From contig JBBSKF010000001.1 in assembly GCA_038256525.1 (NCBI GenBank), forward strand, positions 9,706 to 73,705: 64,000 nucleotides of DNA, in the 5' to 3' direction. A program made the position numbers and the translations under genes. The DNA is from Mycobacteriales bacterium (GTDB lineage Bacteria; Actinomycetota; Actinomycetes; Mycobacteriales; SCTD01). Numbering within the stretch: position 1 is the first letter of the stretch; the number at the start of each line of letters is the position of its first letter. This document shows positions 25,869-32,351 of the stretch, in pieces. The notes beneath the pieces were generated by a model. That model saw only the letters and a list, made by a program, of their open reading frames with translations. It had not been told where the DNA came from and made no database searches.

Positions 25869-26246
25869 ATGACCGCCCCGCAGACCACTTCACCCGAGAC
25901 CGCCTCCGACACGGCTGTCGGCGTCGTGCTCAGCGACCCCGCCGCCGAGAAGGTCAAGGCGCTGCTCGCGCAGGAGGGCCGTGACGACCTCGCGCTGCGG
26001 GTCGCCGTGCAGCCCGGCGGCTGCTCCGGTCTGCGCTACCAGCTGTTCTTCGACGAGCGCTCACTCGACGGTGACGCGGTGCAGTCCTACGCCGACGGCA
26101 GCGTCCGGGTCGTCGTCGACCGGATGAGCGTGCCCTACCTCGCCGGCGCGACGATCGACTTCGTCGACACCATCGAGAAGCAGGGCTTCACCATCGACAA
26201 CCCCAACGCGGGCGGCTCCTGCGCCTGCGGCGAGTCCTTCCACTAG
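25869..26246 (+). CDS. erpA: HesB/IscA-family iron-sulfur cluster insertion protein
   Basis: GGCSGLRYQLFFD and the C-terminal GGSCACGESF cysteine motif. The ORF was trimmed to ATG 25869. Confidence 0.85.
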   Translation: MTAPQTTSPETASDTAVGVVLSDPAAEKVKALLAQEGRDDLALRVAVQPGGCSGLRYQLFFDERSLDGDAVQSYADGSVRVVVDRMSVPYLAGATIDFVDTIEKQGFTIDNPNAGGSCACGESFH

Positions 26247-26446
26247 CTGCCGTAGGCGCCGTAGCCCTCGAGTCGGGCGGCAACGGCCGCGCTGATGTCG
26301 ATGATCCCGCTGCCGGGAGCTGTCACGGGGCGGGTCGGACAGGGGGCGACGGCGCCGAGCACGATGGAGATCTCCCGGCAGTCCTCGACCAGGACGGAGA
26401 TCGAGTCGGCGTCCACGTCGGCGGGGACTGCTCGAGGCCGGGTCAT
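26243..26446 (-). CDS. 67-aa hypothetical protein, last gene of the KS/ACP/C25/DUF4157 operon
   Basis: By manual count, about 88% of third codon positions are G/C. It starts 17 nt after the stop of the upstream KS-like gene. No family is recognised. Its stop shares the CTAG tetranucleotide with the erpA stop. Confidence 0.5.
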   Translation of the reverse strand: MTRPRAVPADVDADSISVLVEDCREISIVLGAVAPCPTRPVTAPGSGIIDISAAVAARLEGYGAYGS

Positions 26447-26463
26447 GCCGCGACGATAGGCAG

Positions 26464-27171
26464 TTACCGGCGAGTACCCAAGCCGGCTCGGCGCGTCGCG
26501 GCGTGCAGCAGGGCGAGCAACCCGTCAGCGGCCTGGCAGTGTCCGGTGAGCGTGGTGACCGACTCGGCCGCTGCCGGGTCCGCGAGCTCGAAGAGCACAG
26601 GCCGGCTGGGCGCTCGTTCGAGCAGCAGCGCCACCGCCGCCTCGCCCGGAGTCGGGCCGTCCGGGGCGAGCCCGGCGAGCACGGTCGGGTCGAGCGCGTC
26701 GGCCCCGACGGCCAGGGCCGCGTCGCTCCGTCCGGTCAGCAGCAGCCGCGAGGCCTCCGTGAGGGCGTCCAGTCCGGCGTTCGGCCCGCACAGCGTCAGA
26801 TTGGGACCGGTGGGTCCGAGCAGTGCCGCCAGCTGCCCGGCATGCACGCTCAACACCGTGTTGGGGAAGGCCATCGGAAAGACCCGGTCGGGGCCCTGCT
26901 CGGCGGCGACCTGCACGAAGGCGGCCAGCGGGTCGACGCTCGCCCACCGGGTCCCGAGCACGATCGCGCACCGCGCCGCCGCGACCGGTATCCCGGCGGT
27001 GCCGAGCGCGTCGGCGCACGCCACCATGGCGAGCCGCGCGGTGCGCGACAGGGGCCGCAGTCCCCGCATCTGCAGGGCGCCGTGCAGCACGTCGTCGGGC
27101 ACCCGCCCTGAGGCCGGCGCTGCACCGAAGCTGCCACGGCCACCTGCGTACAGCAGGCCGACCCCGGTCAC
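26464..27171 (-). CDS. Truncated beta-ketoacyl synthase N-terminal-like protein (CLF-like, no catalytic Cys or His)
   Basis: About 235 aa that align with only the N-terminal KS half. The position of the KS GGACAAG motif reads CGPNAG, and the C-terminal His-His half is absent. GTGA start/stop overlap with the upstream KS at 27168-27171. Confidence 0.65.
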   Translation of the reverse strand: MTGVGLLYAGGRGSFGAAPASGRVPDDVLHGALQMRGLRPLSRTARLAMVACADALGTAGIPVAAARCAIVLGTRWASVDPLAAFVQVAAEQGPDRVFPMAFPNTVLSVHAGQLAALLGPTGPNLTLCGPNAGLDALTEASRLLLTGRSDAALAVGADALDPTVLAGLAPDGPTPGEAAVALLLERAPSRPVLFELADPAAAESVTTLTGHCQAADGLLALLHAATRRAGLGTRR

Positions 27172-28403
27172 GAACACGGTGACCAGCCGGGGGCGGCCAG
27201 GACCGTGACGACGTCGATGCCGCCGAAGGCGTACGCCTGGTTGGCGATGATCCGCAGCGGTGCCTCGCGCGGTTCGTCCGGCACGATGTCCCAGTCCAGG
27301 GCCGGGTCCTGCTCGCCGGCGTGCCAGGTCGGCGGGATCACCTGCTGCTGCAGCGCGAGCACCGACAGCACTGCTTCGACGGCGCTGGCCGCACCGAGGC
27401 CGTGGCCGGTGAGCGACTTCACCGATGACGCTGGCGGACGAGGCCCGTCACCGAAAACCATATGCAGCGCGGCGATCTCAGCGGCGTCGTTCGCCGGAGT
27501 GCCCGTGCCGTGCGCGCAGACCCAGTCGACGTCGCATCGGTCGACCCGAGCATCCTCGATGGCGGAGCGCAGAGCTGCGGCCGCGCCCGCGCCCGAGGGC
27601 AGCGGCGCGGTCGGATGGTGGGCGTCGCAGGCGTGGCCCGCGCCGGCCAGCACGGCGAGCTCCTCGGCGCCCCGGCCGGCGGCACTCGAGCGCCGCTCGA
27701 GCACCAGGAAGGCCGCACCCTCGCCGAGCACCAGCCCCTGCCGGTCGCGGCCGAACGGCCGGCAGCCGTCGCGGGCGAGCGCGCCGAGCTTGGCGAAGCC
27801 GGTGAACGCGGTCCGGCTGAACGCATCGACCCCGCCGGCGAGCACCCGTGTGTGTGCGCCGGACCGAAGGACATCCAAGCCCCAGGCGAGGGCCGAGTTT
27901 CCGGCTGCGCAGGCACCGCCCAGGGCCAGCACCCGACCGTCCGCGCCGACGTGTCTCGCGGTGTCTGCCGCAAGGACGTCAGGTGTGCCGGCCAGCAGCT
28001 CCGCCGCGCGGTGCGGCAGCGGTGGCCAGGCCCGGGCATCCTCCTCCGGCCAGGTCTCGATCCAGGTCGGTTCGCCCATCGTCGTGCCCACCGCCACCGC
28101 CAGACCGGCACCGTCCGAACCGGCGCCGGCGAGCGCATCCTCGGCCGCGAGCCGGGACAGCGCGGCCGCCCGGCCGACCATCGGCCGTCCGGCGCCGTCG
28201 CGGTAGGACGACGGCAGCAGCGCGGCGGGCACCTCGGCGCCCAGGCACGTCGCGTAGTCGCTCGTGGAGAACGACCGCACCGGCCGCACCCCGCTGCGGC
28301 CGGCCAGCACCGCATCCCACAGCGACGGTGCACCCCGGCCCAAGGCCGTCACCACGCCGATCCCGGTCACGACGACGGGATCGCGCCCGTCGGACCCGCT
28401 CAC
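27168..28403 (-). CDS. Beta-ketoacyl-ACP synthase (FabF/KAS II-like)
   Basis: PVVVTGIGVVTALG, active-site LGGACAAGNSAL, CDAHHPTAP, VCAHGTGTPANDAAE and KSLTGHGLGAASAVE. GTG 28403 overlaps the ACP stop (GTGA). The 125 codons of the track ORF upstream of this start were rejected. Confidence 0.85.
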   Translation of the reverse strand: MSGSDGRDPVVVTGIGVVTALGRGAPSLWDAVLAGRSGVRPVRSFSTSDYATCLGAEVPAALLPSSYRDGAGRPMVGRAAALSRLAAEDALAGAGSDGAGLAVAVGTTMGEPTWIETWPEEDARAWPPLPHRAAELLAGTPDVLAADTARHVGADGRVLALGGACAAGNSALAWGLDVLRSGAHTRVLAGGVDAFSRTAFTGFAKLGALARDGCRPFGRDRQGLVLGEGAAFLVLERRSSAAGRGAEELAVLAGAGHACDAHHPTAPLPSGAGAAAALRSAIEDARVDRCDVDWVCAHGTGTPANDAAEIAALHMVFGDGPRPPASSVKSLTGHGLGAASAVEAVLSVLALQQQVIPPTWHAGEQDPALDWDIVPDEPREAPLRIIANQAYAFGGIDVVTVLAAPGWSPCS

Positions 28404-28642
28404 CTGCGGGCGCCCAGCCGCTCCTCGGTCAACGCGGCGAGCGCGCGCAGCGTCGTCGCGCGGATCAGCGAGGCCTCGTCGTAACGGACGCCGAACCGTC
28501 CTTCGGCGTGCACGGCGATCTCCATGGCCATGAGCGAGTCGACATCGACCTGCTCGAACGGCGTGTCCAGGTCGACGTCGGCGGGGTCGAGCTCGGCGAT
28601 CTCGGCGACGAGCTCCCGCAGGGCGTCCTGCAGCGGGGTCAC
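28400..28642 (-). CDS. Acyl carrier protein
   Basis: 80 aa with VDVDSLMAMEI (DSL phosphopantetheine-attachment serine). GTG 28642 overlaps the upstream stop (GTGA). Confidence 0.8.
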   Translation of the reverse strand: MTPLQDALRELVAEIAELDPADVDLDTPFEQVDVDSLMAMEIAVHAEGRFGVRYDEASLIRATTLRALAALTEERLGARR

Positions 28643-29574
28643 GAGGCGACCAGCTGCTCGTCCGGGGCCGGGGCATAGAGCGCGTGCGCCCGCGCCGCCG
28701 CGCCGGGCCCGCCCGACAGGTGGGCGAGCGGGTCGCCGCAGATGCGGTACTGCGAGGCGAGCACCTCGACCTGGCCATCGTCGACGAGTGCGCGGCGCAG
28801 CAGGTCGCCCAGCGAAGTGGGCGCCGCCTGCAGCGCTGCCGCCAGTCGCACCACCAGGCGCACGCTGTCCAGGTGCAGGACCGGCCGGACCGCGCCGAGC
28901 GACGCGGCGGCGGCTCCGGCGACCACGACCGACTCGCTGAAACTCAGTCCGACCCGCCAGCGGCTCGCGGTCCAGCAGGTCACCGACAGCAACGCCCCGA
29001 GCGGGGCGTCCAGGGCGGCGGCAGACAGGTGCTCCGCCCGCAGCCCGCGGTAGGCCGCCCAGCCACCCGGTCGGCCGTGGCCGAGATAGACGGCGAGGCC
29101 GAGCCCACCGCCCAGGCCGTGCAGCAGGTCCTCGCGGGTCACTCGCTCGGCGGTCCAGCGGACGACGTCGACATCCCCGAGGTGGCGCTCGAGCCGATCG
29201 GCCAGGTGCAGGTAGCGGGCCTCGCGCTGGCCGAGCACCGCGACGGGTGCGGGCGACCTGCGGCCGAGGACTTCCGCCGCGGTGGCAACGGCCAGCGGCA
29301 GCTGCGAGGTCACCGGCAACCAGCCGACGGGGACCGGCGCGCCGTCCGCGTCCGGAACGAACAGGCCGGGCAGGACCGTCTGCGGCGAGCGCTGCCGCGC
29401 ACCGACCAGGAGCACGCCGGCCGCTCCGGCCGGCACCCGGTCCTGCCACCGGGCCGGCGGGCCTTCGGCGGTCAGAACGCGGACCTCCCGGGTCGCGGCG
29501 TGCGCCGCCACCAGCGGCGCGAGCGCGGGCAGGGCCTGTGCCGGGGCCAGCAGCACCCAGGCGCCGTCGTTCAC
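28639..29574 (-). CDS. Peptidase C25 (gingipain)-like clan CD protein without a signal peptide
   Basis: VYLGHGRPGGW (His166), then LLSVTCWTAS (Cys200) 34 residues later, then FSES and YRICGDPLAHL. The order and spacing resemble the gingipain GHG...W / AC / GDP pattern. GTG 29574 overlaps the upstream stop (GTGA). Confidence 0.55.
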   Translation of the reverse strand: MNDGAWVLLAPAQALPALAPLVAAHAATREVRVLTAEGPPARWQDRVPAGAAGVLLVGARQRSPQTVLPGLFVPDADGAPVPVGWLPVTSQLPLAVATAAEVLGRRSPAPVAVLGQREARYLHLADRLERHLGDVDVVRWTAERVTREDLLHGLGGGLGLAVYLGHGRPGGWAAYRGLRAEHLSAAALDAPLGALLSVTCWTASRWRVGLSFSESVVVAGAAAASLGAVRPVLHLDSVRLVVRLAAALQAAPTSLGDLLRRALVDDGQVEVLASQYRICGDPLAHLSGGPGAAARAHALYAPAPDEQLVAS

Positions 29575-32351
29575 GCCGCGCGCACCTCGGCGATGTAGCT
29601 GTCGAAAGCAGCGGTGCTGGTCCCGGCCTTGGTCGCCGTGTAGAAGTCGCGCACGATCTGCGCCTGCTGCTCGGGATTGAAGGCCGCCAGACCCTCTGCC
29701 TCGTGATCGGCGAGCCCGGTTGCCCCGCCGTAGCTGTAGCCGTCGGTCTGCTGCCCGATCAGGGCGTGGGCCATGTAGACCGGGCCGACCTGCTCGCCCT
29801 GCCAGACGTGCATCAGCTCGTGCATGAGCCAGCCCTCCTGAGTCGGGTCCGTGTCGGAGTAGCTGGCCGGGAAGTGGATGATCCGCATGGTGACCACCCC
29901 GGTCGGGTTGCCGGTGTTGTTGGCGGCGGCCCAGGACACGAACGATCCCTCGAAGATCTGCACGTCGTCGTAGGGCAGCGTGTCCTGGAACACCGTCTCG
30001 GCCCGCGACCGCTCTCCCGCCGTGAGCCCGCGGAACACCCCGAAGATCTCGAGAACGATCGCGACCGCGCCGAACACCGCGCCGCCGAAGACCTCGAGCA
30101 GCCCGTCGAGCACCTCCTGCAGCGCGCTGCCGGCGTCTTTGAGGGCCTGCGTGATGCGCCGCTTGTCCTCGTCCCTGAGCGTGAACGCCTCCGCCAGGAT
30201 GTCCTTCACCTGCGTGCCGAGCTCGCGCAGCGCCTGCATCGTCAGCGCCAGGGCGTTCTGCGGCTGGGTGACCACGGCGACCAGGAGCTGGCCGAGCGTG
30301 ACGCCGGTGAGCAGGATCGCCTCCACGACCGCGACCACGGCCTCGAGCGCCTTGCCGGCGAACCACGCGACGAGGTCGGCGAGGGCGGCGCCGGCCCGTA
30401 GCAGGCCGCGCACGACCGCGGCGACTCCGGGCAGGAAGTCCTTGGCCACCCACGTGAGCAGGTAGCTGATCGAGTTCTTCAGCCTCGCCCACACCTCGCC
30501 GAGCAGATCGAGCGCGGCCTGCCCGGCCGCCTTCGCCCAGTCGATGACGTCGCGCAGCCGGCTGCCGATGTCCTCGGCGACCCGGACGACCGCCTCGAGG
30601 AAGTCCCGTCCCCGGGCAAGGGCCCAGCTCAGCGCCTCGTCGAGCGCCCGGCGGACGAAGCGGATCGCGAGCACCGCCTCACGCAGCAGCGCCTCGAAGG
30701 CGTTTGCCGCCTGGTTCGCGACCCAGTCGAGGATCTCCCCGACAGCCCGACCGGCCTGCAGGATGCCGGTGACCAGCCGGCGGAGCAGGAAGTAGGTGCC
30801 CGAAGCCGCCTGCTCCAGCAGGTCGGCCACGGCGACGCCCGCCGCGATCGCGGCCTGGACGAACCGGTAGACCGCCCGGTAGCTGAAGACCACGGCGGCC
30901 TTCACGAGCTCCCCGATCGCTGCCCCGGCCGCGACCAGAGCATCGATGGCGGCGTTGAGCGCGGACTGGGCGAGCCGAGCGACCTCCTGGACGATGCGCA
31001 GGACGGCGTAGCCGAGGTCCACTGCCGCCTCGACGGCCCGCCGCACCGCGTCCACGCTGAACCGGACCAGCTCGGTGATCAGGTCGCCCAGCGTCCGCCC
31101 CAGCTCCAGCACGGCGCGGGCCAGCTGCCGGGCGAGGTTTGCCGCCTCCTGGGCGATCAGGCGCATCACCTCGACGAAACCGCTCGCAACGCTGATCAGC
31201 TCCTTCACGACCTCGCGCAGCAGGTCTGCCGCGGTCTGCGCGACCTTGCGCACCACGTCAACGATCTGGTGCCCGAGCTCGACCAGGGCGCGGACCATCC
31301 GGCGCAGCAGGCTCAGCGAGGTCTCGACCGCCGCGCGGAGCACCGTCGCGAGGTTGTGACCCAGATCGATCAGCGCCTGGCCGATGCGGCCGAGCACCCC
31401 GCCGACCGCGTCGGCCGCCTGACGCACGATGTTGGCGAGAGTCTTGCCGATCGCGATCAGCGCCTGGACGACGTTCTTCACGATGTTCGCGGCCTGGGTG
31501 ACCAGGAAGGACAGCAGCTCCCCGAGCGTCTGGCCGAGGCTGTCGATCGCCCGGAGCAGCGTCCGCAGCGCTTCGCCGACGAAGGACACCGCGTCCTGCA
31601 GGATCGAGAACATGGCCCGGCCGGCGTCGCGGACGGCCTGCACCATCTTGCGGACGAAGTCGTAGCCGTGGGCCAGTGCGGCGCCCAGGAGCTGGCCGAT
31701 GCTCTGCCCGGCCGCGAGCAGCCCCTTGGCCAGGCTGGTGAGCTTGTCGACCGTCCAGCTGACCACCGAGGCGATGGCCGCGCCAAGGTCCTGGATGGCG
31801 TCGCTCACCGCGTCGACGAGGGCGTCGATGGCCTCCTTCACCTCATCGACGATGTCGTTGATGACCTCGACGATGGCGTTGTCCTGCTCGTCGTCGGCGG
31901 GAGTGACCGGCTGGGTCTGGAGCTGTGCGCCCAAGCCGGCGATGTGCTCCCAGACCGACTCGAGGGCCGCCTTGTCCTTGCGCCCGGCCGGGGTCAGCAC
32001 GAAGTCCTTCATCAGCGCCCGGGCATGCGCCGCCGGGAGCTGGCTGATGGCGTGGACGACCCACGGCTCCTGACCGGCGTCGCGGTAGCCCTTCAGCAGC
32101 ATCCGGCGTTCCTGCTCGCCCCGCGTCGCGACCGACTGGAACACCTGCCGGTGCTGGTCGATGCTCGGCAAGCCGCTCGCGTAGGCGGCCGCCAGCTTGC
32201 GAGCGGTGGCGGGTGACTGGGCGAACGCCTCCTGGAAGGCCGGCCCCACCTCCGACGGTGTGGGCTCGGCGAGGGCGACCCGCTCAGCGAGCTCGGCCGC
32301 CCCGCTGCGCGAGATGTTGCCCAGCATTGCCACGAAGCGTTCTGCTGCCAT
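29571..32351 (-). CDS. 926-aa helical-repeat protein with one predicted TM segment and a C-terminal DUF4157-like HExxH metallopeptidase domain
   Basis: Residues about 190-760 carry at least 17 copies of an x-[LA]-G-x-x-hydrophobic-x-x-hydrophobic-hydrophobic motif (for example LVELGHQIVDVV, VLELGRTLGDLI). The hydrophobic segment is VFGGAVFGAVAIVLEIFGVF. The C-terminus reads AETVFQDTLPYDDVQIF...WLMHELMHVWQGEQ, with HELMH encoded at 29808-29822. Confidence 0.7.
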   Translation of the reverse strand: MAAERFVAMLGNISRSGAAELAERVALAEPTPSEVGPAFQEAFAQSPATARKLAAAYASGLPSIDQHRQVFQSVATRGEQERRMLLKGYRDAGQEPWVVHAISQLPAAHARALMKDFVLTPAGRKDKAALESVWEHIAGLGAQLQTQPVTPADDEQDNAIVEVINDIVDEVKEAIDALVDAVSDAIQDLGAAIASVVSWTVDKLTSLAKGLLAAGQSIGQLLGAALAHGYDFVRKMVQAVRDAGRAMFSILQDAVSFVGEALRTLLRAIDSLGQTLGELLSFLVTQAANIVKNVVQALIAIGKTLANIVRQAADAVGGVLGRIGQALIDLGHNLATVLRAAVETSLSLLRRMVRALVELGHQIVDVVRKVAQTAADLLREVVKELISVASGFVEVMRLIAQEAANLARQLARAVLELGRTLGDLITELVRFSVDAVRRAVEAAVDLGYAVLRIVQEVARLAQSALNAAIDALVAAGAAIGELVKAAVVFSYRAVYRFVQAAIAAGVAVADLLEQAASGTYFLLRRLVTGILQAGRAVGEILDWVANQAANAFEALLREAVLAIRFVRRALDEALSWALARGRDFLEAVVRVAEDIGSRLRDVIDWAKAAGQAALDLLGEVWARLKNSISYLLTWVAKDFLPGVAAVVRGLLRAGAALADLVAWFAGKALEAVVAVVEAILLTGVTLGQLLVAVVTQPQNALALTMQALRELGTQVKDILAEAFTLRDEDKRRITQALKDAGSALQEVLDGLLEVFGGAVFGAVAIVLEIFGVFRGLTAGERSRAETVFQDTLPYDDVQIFEGSFVSWAAANNTGNPTGVVTMRIIHFPASYSDTDPTQEGWLMHELMHVWQGEQVGPVYMAHALIGQQTDGYSYGGATGLADHEAEGLAAFNPEQQAQIVRDFYTATKAGTSTAAFDSYIAEVRAA

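Follow-up and report, generated by a model that had tools for sequence, protein, structure and literature searches.

To our knowledge, all characterised peptidases of family C25 are secreted, namely the gingipains and PorU, the sortase of the type IX secretion system (T9SS). The uncharacterised domain DUF4157 is often described as a core part of the effectors of contractile injection systems (CISs) (PMC12067865, PMC11126660). Among type II polyketide synthase (PKS)-like sets, 6KXD is cited as a typical complex of a ketosynthase (KS) and its chain length factor (CLF) (PMC10698177), AmcF-AmcG-AmcB combines a KS, a small partner without the motifs and an acyl carrier protein (ACP) for a single C2 elongation (PMC10698177), and ApeO acts with ApeC, a half-size partner of the chain-length-factor type (PMC8358021). 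Here we describe a gene cassette in which relatives of all of these lie side by side. It was found at positions 26243-32351 of a 64,000-nucleotide stretch of DNA from a Mycobacteriales bacterium (the whole stretch is called the window below), and it is a rare cassette kept across about eight bacterial phyla with all predicted active sites conserved: those of two peptidases of unlike catalytic class, of a condensing enzyme and of a carrier protein. An earlier note on this DNA knew of no described system with such a composition. We found none in the full-text literature, where most subscription-journal papers lie outside coverage: no paper joins DUF4157 with ketosynthases or C25, none joins C25 with ketoacyl or ACP genes, and no system described there couples carrier-protein/ketosynthase chemistry directly to a protease pair.

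The region holds six intact open reading frames (ORFs), all on the minus strand as the earlier note had it, and GC content by codon position (GC1/GC2/GC3) is typical of real genes in all six, with GC3 at 0.88-0.94. The domain assignments proposed for the first five (DUF4157-like, gingipain-like, ACP, KS and half-KS) hold in profile searches. We refer to the ORFs as g1 to g6:

29571..32351, minus strand: g1, 926 aa; N-terminal domain, 29-residue helical repeats and predicted C-terminal zinc-peptidase domain; invariant partner of g2
28639..29574, minus strand: g2, 311 aa; predicted signal-less cysteine peptidase of the gingipain fold (C25, clan CD)
28400..28642, minus strand: g3, 80 aa; predicted dedicated ACP
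27168..28403, minus strand: g4, 411 aa; predicted complete KS
26464..27171, minus strand: g5, 235 aa; predicted half-size, non-catalytic KS partner (CLF/CYF-like), with an alternative GTG start at 27177
26243..26446, minus strand: g6, 67 aa; lineage-specific trailing ORF outside the conserved cassette

A scan of one genome per species, covering 185,579 species, recovered cassette loci in 79 species-level genomes from Actinomycetota, Chloroflexota, Acidobacteriota, Verrucomicrobiota, Bacteroidota, Fibrobacterota, Pseudomonadota and unclassified metagenome-assembled genomes. The closest relatives come from Nocardioides and uncultured Actinomycetota. A g1 homologue lies immediately upstream of g2, on the same strand, in every one of the 75 loci that have upstream DNA, and the junction between the two is usually a 4-nt overlap. 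ACP and KS genes are adjacent to this pair in 62 of the 76 evaluable loci, spread over Actinomycetota, Chloroflexota, Bacteroidota, Pseudomonadota and Acidobacteriota; profile searches place them directly 3' of g2 in 58 loci, and the half-size partner then follows in at least 52. Fourteen loci have g1 and g2 alone (the main Opitutaceae clade, Fibrobacterota, Lewinella and one Terriglobia genome), and a further g1-g2-only case, outside these 14, lies on an 873-kb actinobacterial contig (L084:6001-11399). ACP and KS are thus absent in at least four or five independent lineages. Together, these data give good support to a conserved unit of five genes, g1 to g5, with an invariant core of g1 and g2 only. 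Because the gene set is conserved in 79 other genomes, the cassette is more than a chance arrangement; its recurrence outside this genome, which the earlier note had asked for, is borne out for everything except g6.

The sixth gene of the proposed six-gene unit did not stand. The g6 ORF is real, with a GC3 of 0.88 in frame, and it was called as a gene, but it is present only in relatives of at least 90% identity, and it matched no family. As a cassette member it was rejected: phmmer found no homologue in the 79 loci, and only near-identical relatives carry it.

Several variants were seen among the relatives. In a Holophagae/Opitutaceae clade of four loci, g2 faces a convergent pair of genes, first a FabB-like KS and then an ACP, with no half-KS (L045:10951-14447, minus strand; also L019, L032 and L077), and a gene for a FAD_binding_2 flavoprotein, resembling succinate dehydrogenase, precedes the pair. 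This KS and ACP are of another subtype than those of the cassette, which hints at non-orthologous replacement. In the Opitutaceae without ACP and KS, a gene for a 585-aa LGFP-repeat protein lies directly upstream of g1 on the same strand (L029:5147-6904, plus strand; likewise in L021, L025, L030, L037, L053, L063, L067 and L075), and it may reflect lineage synteny or a clade-specific partner. On the 873-kb contig (L084), a DUF222 gene, of an HNH-associated and often mobile type, directly follows g1-g2. An apparent C25-ACP fusion (P0044, L082:7789-8981) was considered as evidence of direct coupling and set aside: it is preceded by a 71-aa split-off N-terminus of g2, and this piece, in a long-read assembly, makes the fusion a likely frameshift artefact.

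The locus is organised as one would expect of an operon. GTGA stop/start overlaps occur on the minus strand at 29571-29574, 28639-28642, 28400-28403 and 27168-27171, that is, at the g1/g2, g2/g3, g3/g4 and g4/g5 junctions, while g5 and g6 are separated by 17 nt without overlap. All four junctions had been reported in the earlier note, and its view of the genes as a single coupled unit is supported. Four-base gene overlaps are, however, ordinary in high-GC operons, so the overlaps indicate an operon but are unremarkable in themselves. For the same reason, the further claim that coupling fixes the stoichiometry of the products does not follow, GTGA coupling being no proof of it. A Shine-Dalgarno-like sequence, GGGGGAG, lies upstream of g1. 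A scan for sigma-70-like promoters found none, the single terminator-like match of a terminator scan is at chance level, and no Rfam family reached its gathering score over window positions 1-64000.

The surroundings of the cassette vary. In the window it is bounded by a HesB/ErpA-type Fe-S gene and a PfkB (adenosine-kinase-like) gene, as had been recognised, with PhoX, glycerate kinase, TusA, class-V aminotransferase and CtaC genes farther out. The minus-strand g6 and the plus-strand HesB/ErpA gene converge, and their stop codons overlap at 26243-26246 (CTAG), leaving the cassette operon and erpA no intergenic room for a terminator between them. GC content is about 0.70-0.78 around the locus, and no GC anomaly was found between cassette and flanks. 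None of the 79 related loci shares the erpA/adoK flanks, and no insertion scar was found by comparison among them; flanking genes differ between lineages, and in Nocardioides caldifontis the same five genes lie beside a two-component system. The idea of a variable locus is therefore supported. Beyond g1-g5, the 10 kb on each side showed no further neighbour conserved among the 79 loci, apart from family-level synteny. The patchy distribution shows signs of probable lateral transfer; g1 of the Terriglobia genome, for example, is 48% identical to actinobacterial g1. Searches of plasmid and phage collections found no g2 homologue.

The smaller member of the invariant pair, g2, belongs to a known peptidase family in an unfamiliar setting. 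Its two putative catalytic residues are:

29077-29079, minus strand: g2 His166, in YLGHGRP
28975-28977, minus strand: g2 Cys200, in SVTCWTASR

Peptidase_C25 (PF01364) matches g2 with 32.6 bits against a gathering score of 23, covering the catalytic subdomain only (model positions 215-371). An AlphaFold2 (AF2) model built with 26 homologues has a predicted local distance difference test score (pLDDT) of 94, and its top Foldseek matches are the gingipains RgpB and Kgp (E 1e-11 to 1e-9, TMq 0.65-0.69), over the whole model and both subdomains, followed by separase and by CHAT proteases from CBASS and type III-E CRISPR systems. All 26 g2 sequences compared share H166-G167 and C200 without exception. 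The catalytic fold takes up all 311 aa, with no Por_Secre_tail or other added domain found, and no N-terminal signal is visible in Gram-negative g2 homologues. g2 therefore has the sequence, fold and dyad of C25 and does not have the secretion architecture of that family (signal peptide, pro-domain and T9SS C-terminal domain); it is a predicted peptidase with an intact His/Cys dyad. As there is no signal peptide, we read the g1-g2 pair as cytoplasmic, which would give the gingipain fold a predicted cytoplasmic setting, free of an export signal and in phyla without T9SS. The g2 family is small, forming 79 clusters in a collection of 5.8 billion proteins, nearly all with PF01364, and some divergent members retain the catalytic subdomain alone. 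One such case (L083:4598-9910) has a divergent g1-like protein of 962 aa (29% identity) followed by a 214-aa g2 with only the catalytic subdomain, and about 1.4 kb downstream of it is a gene with the effector-associated domain EAD11.

The larger member, g1, has a length of 918-983 aa in 70 of 75 homologues and is divided as follows:

31917..32351, minus strand: N-terminal domain, aa 1-145, with conserved motifs HRxxFQ, ERRxLIxGYRxAxQ and VVHAIxQLP
30132..31904, minus strand: repeat region, aa ~150-740, about 20 tandem 29-residue helical repeats
30027..30101, minus strand: hydrophobic segment, aa 751-775, LLEVFGGAVFGAVAIVLEIFGVFRG, directly N-terminal of the peptidase domain
29574..30026, minus strand: predicted zinc-metallopeptidase domain of the DUF4157 / VgrG2b-Tpe type, aa 776-926
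29808-29822, minus strand: HELMH, aa 844-848
29670-29672, minus strand: E894, conserved, in FNPEQQ of the C-terminal domain

A word-indexed search with full-length g1 was swamped by candidates that share the repeats (4 hits), and the family was built from the genome loci instead. The N-terminal domain appears to be family-specific: no Pfam or PDB match covers it, and among 1.84 billion representative proteins it has matches in 65 clusters only, mostly fragments of the same family. In the repeat region, autocorrelation of the sequence peaks at 29, 58, 87, 116, 145 and 174, one near-invariant Gly recurs per repeat at a spacing of 29, and Pro is almost lacking. The repeats are divergent among themselves yet positionally conserved, which points to a structural repeat array. 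A multi-core precursor of a ribosomally synthesised and post-translationally modified peptide (RiPP) was considered and rejected, given that mutual divergence, the positional conservation across phyla and the invariant Gly register.

The repeat region is unusually hydrophobic for a non-membrane protein, which fits lipid or membrane contact. Its grand average of hydropathy (GRAVY) is +0.58 in the window protein and +0.4 to +0.65 across homologues, over about 600 residues of which 20-24% are charged, and both the 29-residue period and the hydrophobicity are also present in low-GC (Bacteroidota) homologues. The segment at aa 751-775 contains the top 19-residue Kyte-Doolittle window (2.24), keeps its hydrophobicity across phyla and is a low-confidence helix in the AF2 model. 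The repeats have weak matches to Phasin_2, ApoLp-III, the ZorA tail, the phage 80alpha tape-measure protein (E 6e-6) and designed helical repeats; we read these as probable compositional or architectural likeness, not as family membership.

These properties bear on two explanations that make g1 chiefly a structural protein. In the first, the amphipathic repeats would, like a phasin or apolipoprotein, cover a hydrophobic body or membrane or pass through it, with the KS and ACP supplying lipid and the peptidase domains serving maturation or turnover. Besides the hydrophobicity itself, Phasin_2 scores above threshold in the Aequorivita homologue, alongside weak ApoLp-III and apolipoprotein matches, the length and repeat number of g1 are conserved across phyla, and the genomic contexts are housekeeping-like. 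The matched helical proteins are, however, similar in composition and need not be homologous, the cassette has no linked genes of storage-lipid or polyhydroxyalkanoate synthesis, and such an assembly would leave the conservation of two intact peptidase active sites unexplained. We consider it unlikely. In the second, g1 would be an orphan cargo of a CIS or phage-tail-like particle encoded elsewhere, a Tme-like effector matured by g2. DUF4157 is the core or effector-associated domain of extracellular contractile injection systems (eCISs) and is joined to tape-measure-like coiled coils in effectors of the Tme/Sle1 type (PMC11126660; bioRxiv 10.1101/2025.11.06.686954), the g1 repeats match a tape-measure protein as noted, and the length of g1 is strikingly constant. 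That match is nevertheless weak and driven by the repeats, and Tme carries its DUF4157 at the N-terminus, the opposite domain order to that of g1. Conserved genes for a sheath, tube, baseplate or spike were absent within 10 kb in all 79 loci, and the phyla and genomes with the cassette have no shown link to a CIS. A role as injected cargo is accordingly very improbable.

The C-terminal domain of g1 can be placed more firmly. HExxHVWQ is at least 95% conserved in 71 g1 sequences. PF13699 (eCIS_core/DUF4157) matches the window protein weakly, at 18-20.4 bits against a gathering score of 22, and matches 15 of 21 g1 family members, with a best E of 2.3e-9. The g1 family profile aligns with 6H56_A, from the crystal structure of the C-terminal effector domain of VgrG2b (6H56), over ~145 residues with the signature motifs in register (E 1.8e-12). 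The AF2 model of this domain (pLDDT 85.6) has no significant neighbour among solved folds, and its top non-significant matches are zinc peptidases. By profile, then, the domain is homologous to the toxin domain of VgrG2b from a type VI secretion system (T6SS).

This homology is also the starting point for the main rival of the protein-acylation explanation that we set out below. The cassette may be a protease-activated toxin or defence module of the abortive-infection kind, in which g1 is a toxin held inactive by its repeats until g2 releases it on a trigger, the PKS module being an optional modifier, sensor or membrane anchor. The VgrG2b/Tpe1 toxin domain to which the g1 C-terminus is homologous is antibacterial (PMC6899460), separase and CHAT proteases come after the gingipains among the fold neighbours of g2, and the cassette is rare and scattered, occurring in 79 of 185,579 species over eight phyla, with indications of lateral transfer. 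The weak match of the g1 repeats to the ZorA tail and the EAD11 gene near one divergent locus point the same way. Against this, PADLOC-DB 2.0 gave no match for g2-g6 and, for g1, only the ZorA tail via the repeats (E 5.7e-8); the surroundings are housekeeping regions with stable family-level synteny and not defence islands, and no copy was found in plasmid or phage collections. No candidate immunity gene is conserved in the 79 loci, the toxin domain is conserved instead of polymorphic, and VgrG2b works in the periplasm, while an export signal is absent from g1. We regard a toxin or defence role as possible but doubtful; if true, it would represent a new effector architecture.

The remaining conserved genes, g3 to g5, resemble the minimal core of a type II PKS. 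The residues predicted to be functional are:

28535-28537, minus strand: g3 Ser36, in the DSL motif, predicted phosphopantetheine attachment serine
27909-27911, minus strand: g4 Cys165, first member of the predicted Cys-His-His triad
27510-27512, minus strand: g4 His298, second member of the triad
27402-27404, minus strand: g4 His334, third member of the triad

g3 matches PP-binding with 58 bits (E 8.6e-16) and stays under the cut-offs for housekeeping ACPs; all 64 cassette ACPs carry the DSL serine. For g4, both ketoacyl-synthase domains were matched, and its Cys/His/His motifs are at least 95% conserved among 52 cassette ketosynthases. It falls under the FabF and AmcF equivalog cut-offs (AmcF, 218 against 325 bits), its closest solved chains are 9S5H_B (264 bits) and 6KXD_A, the KS of the KS-CLF complex (244 bits), and FabF chains reach at most 213 bits and ApeO 131 bits. 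g4 thus appears close to the ketosynthases of highly reducing type II PKSs and is predicted to be catalytically intact.

In contrast to g4, which matches both halves, g5 matches the N-terminal KS (thiolase) half only. Cys128 lies near the active-site position but off register in the HMMER alignment, and its column is variable (C 27, I 12, T 7, V 4 and others). We therefore predict g5 to be non-catalytic and effectively Cys-less, much as the earlier note had described it. The best PDB match of the g5 family profile is 9S5H_C (E 1.2e-23), ten orders of magnitude ahead of any FabF, and this is the partner chain of 9S5H_B, the best match of g4; neither ApeC nor a 6KXD partner chain was found with the g5 profile against the PDB. 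Chains B and C of 9S5H/9S5I form one recently deposited complex, named only '3-oxoacyl-(ACP) synthase'.

Two features of this module had been called odd and are not. Type II systems borrow FabD and the phosphopantetheinyl transferase (PPTase) of the host, so the absence of an acyltransferase and PPTase of their own is normal for them. A KS partner of half size and without the Cys is already known from ApeO-ApeC (PMC8358021), and the arrangement resembles AmcF-AmcG (PMC10698177). By their sequences, g3-g5 would qualify as the KS, partner and ACP of a type II PKS-like system that is without the enzymes that define a pathway: tailoring, loading and release enzymes (ketoreductase and dehydratase; AmcC-E and AmcH; cyclases) were found neither at the window locus nor as conserved genes in related loci.

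A small-molecule cluster, in which g3-g5 would make a polyketide or beta-keto acid and the peptidases would act as release, tailoring or self-resistance factors, is the explanation that this module would suggest by itself. g4 and g5 are closest to the KS-partner heterodimers of type II PKS-like pathways (PMC10698177; PMC8358021), the ACP is dedicated and the KS triad has been kept. Conserved nearby genes for loading, reduction, dehydration, cyclisation, release or export are missing from all 79 loci, however, and it is the peptidase pair that is the invariant part, found also without PKS genes. A length-conserved repeat protein of 930 aa would, moreover, be atypical as a tailoring enzyme. We think such a cluster improbable.

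As the PKS part cannot reduce, cyclise or release a product and is co-translated with the protease pair, that pair is the likeliest user of the ACP thioester. Clan-CD transpeptidases attach proteins to lipid-bearing acceptors, as is the case for PorU, GPI transamidase and asparaginyl ligases. Our best explanation, which we put forward tentatively and with low confidence, is that the protease pair draws on a beta-ketoacyl or short polyketide chain bound to the ACP in order to process or acylate a protein. In this scheme, the PPTase and FabD of the host would produce malonyl-ACP on g3, and the g4/g5 heterodimer would carry out one or a few condensations on a fatty acyl or decarboxylated malonyl starter unit, leaving a beta-ketoacyl or short polyketide thioester on g3. 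g2 would cut g1 itself or a target bound to the repeats of g1 as a scaffold, and the acyl chain would then be handed to a protein amine or thiol, in a transfer step resembling the transpeptidase chemistry of PorU (C25), GPI transamidase and asparaginyl ligases. The outcome would be a lipid-modified, membrane-directed zinc-peptidase effector, and lineages with only g1 and g2 would skip the acylation or use housekeeping acyl-ACP. Consistent with such a scheme, the predicted catalytic residues are all retained (g1 HExxH, g2 His/Cys, KS Cys-His-His, and the ACP Ser in 64 of 64). The VgrG2b toxin, for its part, lowered membrane-associated lipoproteins in vitro, and cutting near lipid anchors has been proposed for it (PMC6899460).

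Several observations weigh against protein acylation. The steps of the chemistry are all proposals, and acylation is not essential to the core function, because the PKS module is missing in at least four to five independent g1-g2 lineages; its repeated loss beside a persisting g1-g2 pair is, together with the lack of a KS-specific residue pattern in that pair, the chief weakness of this explanation. We know of no clan-CD enzyme that accepts acyl groups from ACP thioesters. A comparison of KS-containing and KS-less cassettes revealed no differing residues in g2; in g1, positions 489, 533, 561 and 566 covary with the KS, but they are hydrophobic and mainly an effect of the Opitutaceae clade. With no KS-specific residues, neither g1 nor g2 offers a candidate acylation site. 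The sole apparent g2-ACP fusion looks like an assembly frameshift, and the convergent KS-ACP pair may belong to the neighbouring flavoprotein operon.

We also hold it possible, if rather doubtful, that the cassette is a new protein-modification machine, in which g2 and the DUF4157 peptidase, working on the repeat scaffold, cleave a protein and acylate it with the thioester of their own mini-PKS. Were such an acylation machine real, it would provide a new route of protein lipidation and the first mechanistic role for DUF4157 outside injection systems; the chemical link by itself, be it protein acylation or a protease-handled thioester, would amount to a new kind of post-translational modification. 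Whichever explanation applies, the cassette puts DUF4157 in a small, self-contained and genetically tractable setting.

Compared with known systems, g1 is nearest to the effectors with a VgrG2b C-terminal/Tpe1 domain (6H56), with which it has the motifs RxL(S/T)xxE...VFGDSID, HExxHVWQ and FNxEQQxxI in common. Unlike these, g1 has no fusion to VgrG, PAAR or eCIS parts and no export signal, no T6SS or eCIS gene or adjacent immunity gene is conserved at cassette loci, a 780-aa stretch of N-domain and 29-residue repeats absent from VgrG2b precedes the toxin-like domain, and g1 is always paired with a C25-like peptidase. With the gingipains and PorU (MEROPS C25), g2 has in common the two-subdomain fold and the His-Gly...Cys dyad in the same order, although sequence identity to the gingipains is 13-15%. 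It differs from them in its size of only 311 aa, in being without signal peptide, pro-domain, Ig-like, adhesin and T9SS C-terminal domains, and in its occurrence in Actinomycetota, Chloroflexota and other phyla without T9SS.

A clan-CD protease beside a large putative effector is also what the caspase-like protease/gasdermin, TPR-CHAT Craspase and SAVED-CHAT systems present, and bacterial gasdermins are both lipidated and protease-activated. The cassette, in contrast, carries no STAND, CRISPR or cyclic-nucleotide sensor, its g2 has no PADLOC match, its putative effector is a zinc peptidase and not a pore former, and its context is housekeeping. The ApeO-ApeC (6QSP), 6KXD and AmcF-AmcG-AmcB sets resemble g3-g5 in that a full KS with an active Cys is paired with a smaller, non-catalytic partner and accompanied by a dedicated ACP. 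They differ in that the cassette lacks a ketoreductase, dehydratase, adenylating loader, aminotransferase, thioesterase and second KS, and in that its PKS genes are coupled to peptidase genes, not to tailoring genes. Finally, the Tme/Sle1-type CIS effectors are like g1 in joining DUF4157 to a very long, remotely tape-measure-like helical region (PMC11126660), whereas g1 has the opposite domain order, neither a nuclease nor another toxin domain and no CIS genes around it, and its helices form a regular array of 29-residue repeats, each with one invariant Gly. Taken together, these comparisons lead us to rate the cassette as lying outside the described kinds: the parts all belong to or resemble known families, and what is new is their conserved combination.

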